Virus genome (UHGV): UHGV-0090469
DNA: 18,665 bases
Strand: one strand, 5' to 3'
From: a virus
Below are positions 3,001 to 6,000 of this stretch, in pieces. Every line of letters starts with the position of its first letter. Position 1 is the stretch's first letter. The position numbers were made by a program.

Positions 3001-6000
3001 CGTTAAACCGTTCTATGATCAGCTGATTACGAAATTCGATATTGAAGAGGCATGGGCAGAAAACCAACTGAAACAAATAACACGATAACGGCTATGGAAG
3101 TTAATTCCAGCTATTTACTTTTCCCGAATCTGTGTTAATTTTATCCCAACGATGGGTTAATGCCTTCGTTTCAAGCCCCGCGGATAACACCGTGGGGCTT
3201 TTGCGTTTCTGGAGGGTAAGAAAATGCACGGGTAGAACGGACAGACCGCAGTCGAAAGGCACTGCAGCAGTCATGATGCTGCCCCGAGTCGCGTAATGGC
3301 GAGCCTGTGTAGTGATGGGTAAGGGTTCATAGATCAAAATAAGCTCCGGTAAAGCAGCGTGAATGCCAGATACGCACCGGTTATCAGCGGCGATGACGCG
3401 ACAGCACCTCAAGGGCATGAGCGTGGCCACTCCGGGAAGTGGCAAAGAATTTATAGCCTCGCTTATGCGGGGCTTTTCTATTTCAGGCCTCACGGGAATC
3501 ATCCGCTACGTGCTTTGTTGATAAATCCAGCCCGTGAAGCCTGACCCTTTTCATACACACACAGCGCCATCCGAAGAATCGGAGGTGAGGCTATGACCAG
3601 AATGAGCACCATTTACAGCAGACTTTCATATGGAACAGGCACCACGCTGACCGGCTGCGGTGTATCAGCGAAGGCATATGCCGAAACAGCAAAAACAGCA
3701 AAAGAGGTGTCCTGGATGTTGGCCGACAGAATTGCAGGGTTAAGCCTGAGCGACTGGGCAATTATTGTCGGTATCGCATGCACGGTAATCACCTGTGCAG
3801 TGAACTGGTATTTCCGCTGGAAAGAACGGGAGGATCGGCGCAATGGCTATGTCTCTAAAGCTGAAGAATAAATTGAGCGCAGCGGTCGTTGGTTTGATTC
3901 TTGCCGGGGCTTCCGCACCCGTGATTCTCGATCAGTTTCTGGATGAGAAAGAGGGTAACAGCTTGACAGCATATCGCGACGGCGGCGGACTCTGGACCAT
4001 TTGCCGTGGTGCAACAATGGTTGATGGCAAGCCAGTAGTACAGGGCATGAAGCTGTCAGCTGAGAAATGCGCCCAGGTAAACGCCATTGAACGCGACAAG
4101 GCGCTGGCGTGGGTTGACCGAAATATCAAAGTACCACTGACCGAACCACAGAAAGCGGGTATCGCTTCTTTCTGCCCATATAACATCGGCCCCGGAAAAT
4201 GTTTCCCGTCTACGTTCTATAAGCGAATTAATGCTGGCGATACGAAAGGAGCCTGTGAAGCTATCCGCTGGTGGATTAAAGACGGTGGCCGCGATTGCCG
4301 CCTGACCAAGGGCCAGAAGGATGGATGTTATGGGCAGGTAGAACGGCGGGACCAGGAAAGCGCACTGACGTGCTGGGGGATAGACCAGTGAAGCCGGGTG
4401 GCATCTGCATCATTGTGATTGTTGCGTTGGTAGGTTCGTTTCTCGCTGGCAGTGAGTGGACGAACCGCAGCTGGAAAATAAAGTGGGCTGACCGGGATAG
4501 CGCGGAATCTTCACAGGAAGCGAATGCACAGACCGCAGCTCGTATGATTGAACAAGGGCGAACAATCGCCCGGGATGAGGCCGTTAAAGATGCTCAAGCT
4601 CAAGCAGCGAGCGCTGCCGTTACTTCTGCTGGCCTGGCTACCACTGTTAAGCAGCTGCGCGCCGAAGCAACAAAACTCGCTACCCACATGGACGCCGCAA
4701 AGCACACCGCAGATCTCGCCACTTCCGTCAGAAGCAAAACAGCCGGAGCCAACGCAGCAATGCTTGCCGACATGCTCGGAAGCCTTGCAGAAGCAGCTCG
4801 ATATTATGCTGGACGATCTGACGAAAGCTACCGGGCAGGAATGACGTGTGAGCGGATTTACGAATCAGTGCGACTGTCGAATAACCAATAGGCGATTCAT
4901 GCTGCTAGTTTTCGTCCTCTTGTCGATATGGCTCTGTCGGCAACATGAGGAACGCCGCTGGCCTTCGGTCGGCTTTAATGTCTCATCGCTGATGCTCATC
5001 ACCGAGCAACCGGCACGCAGTAAGGGGCTGCGCTGAGATAAGAGCCGAGAATTCAATCAAATCGCCTCGCACTCGCGGGGCTTTTTAACAACTGAGGAAT
5101 GAGCATGACAGTAGTTCTTACAGCTAAGCAGATTGAAGACCTGGCAGCCTTCTCGAAGGAAGATGGCCAGCCTCAATACACCATCACCACCGGCACAATT
5201 CCTGAATTTGAAGCTGATAATGGTGAGATTATCCCCGGTTATACCGGACTTATCGCCTATTCAGAATCACTGGATCACGGTGTGTTGCAACTCGACGACT
5301 AGCGGCATTACAGCAGGTATTCACTGAGTGCCTGTGATAATGCAACAGCCCGTACAAAACGGGCTTGGATTTATCTCTTTGTTGCGTTCATGGTCACATG
5401 GTAAACGAATTGGCTAAATTGGTTATCCCAGCGCCCATTATGATTAGCTGCAACTAATTGCATTAACGCCTGCATTAACTTGCTGAACAGCAAGATTAAC
5501 TTAAGTCTGTTTTTTGAACTATCACTATCTAAGGAAACTTCTTCGGTTAATTGATTCTCGGCGTTAAAAATACCCAGTTTTGATTCTTCCATGCTGGGTT
5601 CCGTTGGATGCTGTTTAAAGTATTCAGTCAGAGTATCCTTCAGGCTCTGGATCCTTGAATCAGCAATGCTTTGTATTGATGGATTGTGTGCAAGGTCATT
5701 ACGCATTGAGTTGATGGTTTTAAGTGATTTCATAAGTTCCGGGGGGATTCCCAGGTTTCCCGCCATGGATATTTTAGTATTACATTCGATTAAAAGTTTG
5801 TTTTTATCTCTTCCAAAGAGATCTTGGCAGTCACAGCATGCGCATATCCATGCTTCGACCATGCGCTCACAAAGTAGGTGAATGCGCAATGTAGTACCCA
5901 CATCGTCATCGCTTTCCACTGCTCTCGCGAATAAAGATGGAAAATCAATCTCATGGTAATAGTCCATGAAAATCCTTGCATTCATAAATCCTCCAGGTAG

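Follow-up and report, generated by a model that had tools for sequence, protein, structure and literature searches.

Genomic locus

The window analyzed here is a stretch of 18,665 nucleotides (nt) of the virus genome UHGV-0090469, and the subject of this study is a gene located at 5371-5985 on its minus strand, together with the small divergent gene that adjoins it. By sequence identity, the minus-strand gene is taiEcA and its neighbor is atiEcA, i.e. the already known Tai/Ati cassette of phi80-type prophages. An original prediction, made from the DNA sequence, had described the former gene as separately acquired cargo encoding a HEPN-like defense or superinfection exclusion effector that could be matched to no named family, a statement superseded by its present assignment to Tai and, by homology, to HepS; the functionally paired gene atiEcA at 6005-6196 had been overlooked.

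The open reading frame (ORF) proposed at 5371-5985 is borne out by our reading of the window. It begins with an ATG codon, is preceded 4 nt upstream by the GGAGG sequence of the strong ribosome-binding site noted earlier, and codes for a 204-amino-acid prophage defense protein with a predicted HEPN fold, a homolog of the phi80 orf63 product. Its flanks consist of genes for NinB, an HNH endonuclease, RusA, Q, endolysin and Rz on the left and of those for the small and then the large terminase subunits on the right, all of them on the plus strand, which places it in the interval from Rz to the small terminase gene. No other convincing minus-strand gene exists within this late region, in agreement with the original prediction: its homolog is the single minus-strand gene across 19 kb in the NCBI PGAP annotation of a 99.7%-identical prophage of E. 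coli Nissle 1917, and the other long minus-strand ORF of the window (3101-3502) had no counterpart among phage protein families. The low G+C content, previously estimated at about 37-40% from short samples, extends to the entire ORF (40.3%, compared with 52.3% for the whole window, 53.2% for the lysis genes on the left, and 49.0% for the 2.6 kb on the right). Since the ORF is intact in relatives that are 47-75% identical to TaiEcA, and since the ratio of nonsynonymous to synonymous substitution rates (dN/dS) is 0.13 in the only pair whose synonymous changes are unsaturated, taiEcA is considered a real coding gene.

The motif SMRNDLAHNP, singled out earlier, is formed by residues 93-102, and the codons of its Rx4H element R95-N-D-L-A-H100 were read at 5686-5703 on the minus strand (R95 at 5703-5701 and H100 at 5688-5686). 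The N-terminus (MNARIFMDYYHEIDF) has no signal peptide, as had been stated, and no lipobox. Both features bear on the reading of the gene as a lysogenic-conversion gene with an envelope or virulence function, unrelated to defense, for which slot and orientation speak on general grounds, as these are shared with bor, which phage lambda carries as cargo in opposite orientation between its lysis genes and cos. The absence of an export or lipoprotein signal, the predicted HEPN fold, and the defense role demonstrated for the phi80 allele leave this reading with a negligible probability, and it is refuted by what has been published on phi80 deleted for taiEcA (PMC11364771).

Signals for the expression of tai are less distinct. 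A G+C-rich hairpin (GCCCG-TTTTGTA-CGGGC) read at 5348-5364, just beyond the tai stop codon, is a possible terminator of this gene and was not picked up by a terminator scan. No consensus sigma-70 promoter was found by scanning positions 4800-6500. With a less stringent matrix, a weak but recurrent promoter-like site emerged approximately 223 nt upstream of tai, which overlaps the codons for the C-terminal tail of Ati homologs and, in the window, falls just beyond the early ati stop codon.

Identity with the Tai/Ati cassette of phage phi80

At the DNA level, phage phi80 is 96.7% identical over this region, and the two genes are known there as PHI80_63 and PHI80_64. TaiEcA shares 203 of its 204 residues (99.5%) with the PHI80_63 product, the sole substitution being A3 in the window versus T3 in phi80, and AtiEcA is identical to the orf64 product at all 63 residues (100%). 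The coordinates of PHI80_63 (JX871397 44365-44979) are exactly those of the TaiEcA entry in Table S3 of He et al. (Nat Commun 2024; PMC11364771), who named phi80 orf63 TaiEcA, for 'tail assembly inhibition', and orf64 AtiEcA, and who listed 57 homologs. Phi80 and the window have in common the slot before the small terminase gene, the divergent arrangement described as a 'noncontiguous operon', and the orf66-like flank. They differ in the left neighbor, which is rha in phi80 and a 67-amino-acid ORF in the window, and in the large terminase gene, which is frameshifted in the prophage of the window.

The function of both genes has been worked out for phi80. Lysogens of this phage block HK106, HK544 and HK578 in a tai-dependent manner, protection acting at the population level, and mutations that allow escape map to the C-terminal portion of J, the central tail fiber protein (PMC11364771). 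Under Tai, the DNA of the invader enters and replicates normally, capsids are made and the cells lyse, and the burst is non-infectious, consisting of tailless particles only, as seen by electron microscopy (PMC11364771). The proposed defense role thus stands for a protein 99.5% identical to phi80 TaiEcA, whereas the part of the original prediction that invoked superinfection exclusion does not, given the unaffected entry and replication of DNA. The J protein of phi80 itself is sensitive to Tai; deletion of orf64 cripples the induced phage, and the survivors have insertions in orf63 (PMC11364771). Without ati, phi80 can persist in the lysogenic state, failure being confined to induction, and transfer of ati into HK106 renders that phage immune to Tai (PMC11364771). 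Tai is produced constitutively in the lysogen, its level is lowered by expression of Q, and ati belongs to the Q-dependent late transcript, which runs antisense through tai (PMC11364771). The tested Tai systems target lambdoid phages, and none of them restricts lambda (PMC11364771).

In addition, lysogens of phi80 (Lula) have been reported to resist T4 completely and to cut the yield of P1 tenfold. These phenotypes probably originate from a phi80 gene other than tai, as the tested Tai systems target lambdoid phages.

Predicted fold and remote homology of TaiEcA

Standard profile libraries gave only faint hints, and on those alone the HEPN idea would be a guess. Neither Tai nor Ati matched a Pfam or NCBIfam model (none at E<=1 in Pfam), PHROGs placed TaiEcA in the unannotated family phrog_5483, and PADLOC gave faint matches to CARF-HEPN models (E 0.004-0.012) covering only the HEPN end, so that no CARF sensor domain is present in this protein of just 204 amino acids. 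The Abi_2 family, named earlier among the profiles to be searched, fared no better: its AbiD-AbiF-type profile had no Pfam match at E<=1, and the value for PHROG 2158 (E 0.025) is at chance level.

Firmer evidence was obtained from the predicted structure. The AlphaFold2 model of TaiEcA, built on an alignment of 19 close relatives that are 47-100% identical to it, has a mean predicted local distance difference test (pLDDT) score of 86.5 and forms the helical HEPN bundle expected from the original prediction. In a Foldseek search of the PDB with this model, HepS (9oij/9oik) ranked first with probability 1.0 over 194 aligned columns, followed by MtlR and YggD; HepT toxins were also among the structural neighbors. 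By structure, the nearest characterized relative of the modeled TaiEcA is HepS, a Gifsy-1 prophage protein of Salmonella described as a solo-HEPN anticodon nuclease (Sargen et al., Nature 2026; PMC13043305). HepS is an inactive tetramer at rest that is opened by the nascent tail-tip protein J and then cuts transfer RNA (tRNA) anticodon loops; its trigger comprises lambda J residues 902-933, with F924 being critical, and its residues R100 and H105 are required for both defense and tRNA cleavage (PMC13043305).

The relationship is recovered by profile methods. An exhaustive profile search identified 210 Tai relatives, mostly of 170-200 amino acids, 136 of which (17-74% identical to TaiEcA) were taken as the broad family. 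The profile of these 136 sequences matches HepS 9oij at E 1.2e-18 and the HEPN domains of Csm6 at approximately 5e-4. Alignment of the close Tai family with the HepS family by hhalign gave 93.9%, and that of the broad family gave 99.4% with an E value of 4.9e-21 over 163 columns, nearly the full length of both proteins; direct BLASTP of Tai with HepS is limited to the motif region (14 of 30 residues identical). R95, N96 and H100 are invariant in the 19 close relatives and are kept in 134, 135 and 135 of the 136 broad-family members, respectively, as are E40 (134) and K71 (123/136). These five residues correspond to E48, K76, R100, N101 and H105 of HepS, positions at which the HepS family alignment shows little or no variation. 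The most variable stretch of the close family is a predicted beta-hairpin insert at residues 119-155, with a mean column entropy of 1.79 bits versus 0.4-0.6 bits in the catalytic helices.

Given the agreement of fold match, profile matches and motif conservation, the assignment of TaiEcA to the HEPN fold, with an almost invariant R-N-x3-H motif, is well supported by the model and the alignments, and the earlier suggestion of an Rx4H HEPN-like protein, including the conservation of its residues among homologs, gains substance. A HepS fragment was not found in the phage collection. Viral scans for the genomic context of intermediate Tai relatives returned nothing, and one genome-scan match for such a relative was discarded as a histidine kinase, a false positive.

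The connection between the two proteins is made by neither published study, and this is an absence of evidence only. The words 'HEPN', 'nuclease' and 'domain' do not occur in the Tai paper (PMC11364771). In the HepS paper (PMC13043305) 'tail assembly' occurs only in the Discussion, from which we conclude that the Tai paper is absent from its reference list. A literature search of incomplete coverage, with the supplementary homolog tables of HepS outside it, found no relevant paper that joins Tai with HEPN or HepS.

The divergent gene atiEcA

The counter-defense gene atiEcA (phi80 orf64; 6005-6196, plus strand) encodes the 63-amino-acid anti-Tai protein and is co-directional with the late operon. 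The start codons of tai and ati are separated by a 19-nt spacer (5986-6004) that contains both ribosome-binding sites (CCTGGAGG and CCTCCAGG). Across the contexts examined the partner ORF encodes 63-69 amino acids and is transcribed divergently from the HEPN gene, 19-21 nt separating the two start codons, and ati is found beside tai at this spacing in 37 of 39 related loci. Its dN/dS of 0.17-0.26 indicates purifying selection. Ati proteins are 35% identical where the partner Tai proteins are 47% identical; in comparison of the window with locus L003, Ati retains 89% identical residues and Tai just 63%, which suggests diversification or recombination in a recognition surface. AtiEcA is predicted to adopt a small five-strand beta fold (pLDDT 79), for which no meaningful structural match was found, and no nucleotidyltransferase or other recognizable domain was detected in it. 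In all loci examined, ati has the orientation of the structural genes and tai the opposite one, and this constant arrangement suggests that Ati is a late-expressed self-immunity factor.

The same arrangement might be taken for a toxin-antitoxin pair similar to HepT-MNT, in which a constitutively toxic HEPN RNase is restrained by Ati; the small, tightly conserved adjacent gene, the binding of Tai to Ati reported for one pair, from Salmonella, in a two-hybrid assay (PMC11364771), and the presence of HepT toxins among the structural neighbors of TaiEcA all fit such a pair. However, Ati is produced from the late operon and only in the lytic cycle, whereas Tai is made in the lysogen; phi80 lacking ati persists as a lysogen and fails only when induced; and the partner has none of the domains of an MNT-type antitoxin. 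Two Enterobacter-type prophages (L009 5765-6000 and L030 at approximately 3770-4000) have an intact tai with the RNxxxH motif kept beside a frameshifted ati remnant with stop codons, and eight distant chromosomal Tai relatives revealed by a metagenome scan, located between rluD and yfiH, are without ati. As tai is thus kept next to a broken ati, and as ati is absent from these chromosomal relatives and from the vicinity of HepS, Ati is not an obligatory antitoxin. We regard the toxin-antitoxin reading as highly improbable, since expression timing, lysogen survival without ati, and the ati-less lineages largely refute it.

Several additional observations were made for this gene. In a tail-gene context (L007 5266-5610 and L008 32-259), a 114-amino-acid ORF adjoins ati and gives two more weak matches to the Ati profile (E of approximately 5e-9); it may represent a duplicated or fused Ati-like gene. 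A by-eye 'QxFM' likeness, considered as a sign that Ati mimics the J trigger, was rejected, since local alignments compared with those of shuffled sequences put it at chance level. Public records label the orf64 protein as a 'Fur-regulated protein'. No Fur box with <=3 mismatches was found anywhere in the window, and the name looks like a legacy annotation, the demonstrated role being that of the counter-defense protein AtiEcA.

Proposed mode of action

In the best overall explanation, which we hold with considerable confidence, the locus is the taiEcA/atiEcA cassette, its HEPN protein Tai is homologous to HepS, and defense would include an RNase step that is triggered by J and blocked by Ati. 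Tai would rest as an inactive oligomer and bind the newly made J of an invader. Such binding would withhold J from tail-tip assembly and, at the same time, open a composite HEPN site that cuts RNA, probably tRNA; Ati would bind Tai and block this J-triggered step. Tai may therefore be a J-triggered RNase instead of, or besides, a steric blocker, and catalysis is somewhat more probably needed for defense than dispensable. A wider proposition is put forward tentatively, namely that Tai and HepS constitute one family, that a HEPN RNase triggered by J is required for, or strengthens, the inhibition of tail assembly by Tai, that Ati would be the first known protein inhibitor of such solo HEPN nucleases, and that the orf66-like protein described below might modulate the system.

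A number of points weigh against a nuclease step. Continued capsid production and lysis under Tai argue against a global shut-off of translation, and the authors of the Tai study contrast it with abortive systems that activate an effector, favoring direct steric inhibition (PMC11364771). Nuclease activity is proven for HepS and putative for Tai; the two proteins are only approximately 15% identical; the TaiEcA structure is a prediction based on a shallow alignment of 19 sequences, and its near neighbors MtlR and YggD demonstrate that HEPN folds without catalysis exist. Lambda, moreover, is restricted by HepS, but is plated normally by phi80 lysogens and unrestricted by any tested Tai, so that the two proteins differ in specificity.

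An alternative is that Tai is purely steric, i.e. that it binds J and prevents trimerization or tail-tip assembly, with the HEPN scaffold and the Rx4H motif serving only structural or binding roles. It is the proposal of the Tai authors themselves (PMC11364771), it fits the tailless but otherwise complete particles in cells where phage DNA replication is unaffected and lysis continues, it is in line with non-catalytic HEPN proteins as close structural neighbors, and the HepS authors, too, propose that J binding would prevent trimerization of J (PMC13043305). It is harder to reconcile with the fact that 134-135 of 136 relatives retain the R/N/H motif although their identity elsewhere is just 17-40%, a constraint difficult to explain for a pure binder, and with the requirement of R100 and H105 of the full-length homolog HepS for defense and tRNA cleavage. 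On balance, we consider a purely steric Tai rather unlikely and favor a J-triggered RNase step.

The mobile cassette and neighboring genes

The tai and ati genes are part of a low-G+C cassette (42%) of approximately 1.07 kb located at 5304-6378, the coordinates at which blastn homology to other phage contexts stops. The cassette occupies at least four distinct slots in phages, including the lysis-terminase interval, the site between the major tail and chaperone genes, the vicinity of arc/ant genes, and the position immediately upstream of a J-like gene, so that its description as separately acquired cargo proves apt. The slot categories of the Tai relatives (before terS, between tail genes, and the arc-mnt region) are those of Table S3 of the Tai paper. 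A non-coding element of approximately 134 nt at the right end of the cassette (6245-6378), present in a single copy in the window, is repeated in phi80 (L001 2350-2487, 78% identity) just upstream of rha and possibly marks a recombination boundary or has a regulatory function.

The next gene after ati (6371-7099, plus strand) encodes a 242-amino-acid protein similar to phi80 orf66 and N15 gp59, which contains a segment resembling the tail-tip protein J of the prophage itself. It scores 23.1 bits with the Pfam model Phage_Tail_Tip (cut-off 22), and its residues 83-142 match residues 1063-1129 of phi80 J (E 8e-4), whereas residues 59-142 match residues 1033-1132 of the Nissle prophage J (E 5e-4). 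In shuffle tests the observed scores were reached in 2 of 500 trials for phi80 J and in none of 500 for Nissle J. The matched stretch of J is the equivalent of lambda J 902-933, the HepS trigger peptide, with RNGVSF126IKDAA of the orf66-like protein aligned to QNGQTF1113IRASF of J. The orf66-like protein might modulate the Tai system; a single orf66 deletion had no phenotype (PMC11364771), and comparison of the protein with solved structures gave no match. Further downstream (7865-9750, plus strand), the large terminase gene is divided between two overlapping frames, one of them matching phi80 TerL residues 1-271 and the other residues 282-640, which reflects either a frameshift that makes the prophage defective or a sequencing error.

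Implications and comparison with known systems

As the defense and counter-defense roles of the gene pair have already been worked out experimentally, the window contains no new system. What is added here is that Tai, described as a non-enzymatic blocker of tail assembly, and HepS, a J-activated tRNA nuclease, are full-length homologs with a common catalytic motif; this connection and the J-like segment of the neighboring orf66-like gene constitute the residual interest of the locus. If Tai proteins are nucleases, the mechanism of the Tai study needs revision, and HepS-type defenses gain a natural inhibitor, Ati, together with a second route to self-immunity. Across ~130 complete E. coli genomes, among them that of the probiotic Nissle 1917, the proteins now annotated as 'hypothetical protein' and 'Fur-regulated protein' could be given new names.

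Among the more distant systems, lambda Bor and Tai are unrelated proteins, and Tai lacks a lipoprotein signal. In HepT-MNT, the adjacent antitoxin MNT is a nucleotidyltransferase, whereas the partner of Tai is a 63-amino-acid beta protein without Pfam or NCBIfam match; Csm6/Csx1 proteins possess the CARF domain that Tai lacks, and both systems differ from Tai in length and oligomer context. The prophage HEPN RNase Tha of Staphylococcus aureus, which is activated by a tail protein, resembles Tai in its link to a tail component and in self-immunity through a noncontiguous operon. Tha is set beside Tai here by description only, and the HepS authors regard it as an 'entirely different system', being a non-specific RNase with another tail trigger (PMC13043305).

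The closest parallel is with HepS, for which 393 homologs are given in a supplementary list (PMC13043305). Both HepS and Tai are stand-alone prophage proteins of ~200-210 amino acids with the same HEPN fold and full-length homology, share the R-N-x3-H motif as well as a conserved E and K, are constitutively expressed in the lysogen, and are genetically tied to the siphophage tail-tip protein J, in the case of TaiEcA via J escape mutants. The HepS gene is an early-region, co-directional gene without a partner, whereas tai is a divergent late-region gene accompanied by ati; the lack of a conserved partner gene that marks the self-sufficient HepS is not shared by the Tai clade, where Ati is present in 37 of the 39 loci. 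The two lineages also differ in how their own J is equipped. In Gifsy phages, the residue equivalent to lambda J F924 is Ile, so that HepS is not triggered (PMC13043305), whereas J of phi80, of the Nissle-type prophage and of locus L010 has kept Phe (Q-x-F), and the retention of this Phe in phi80-type J fits the published need of phi80 for Ati.

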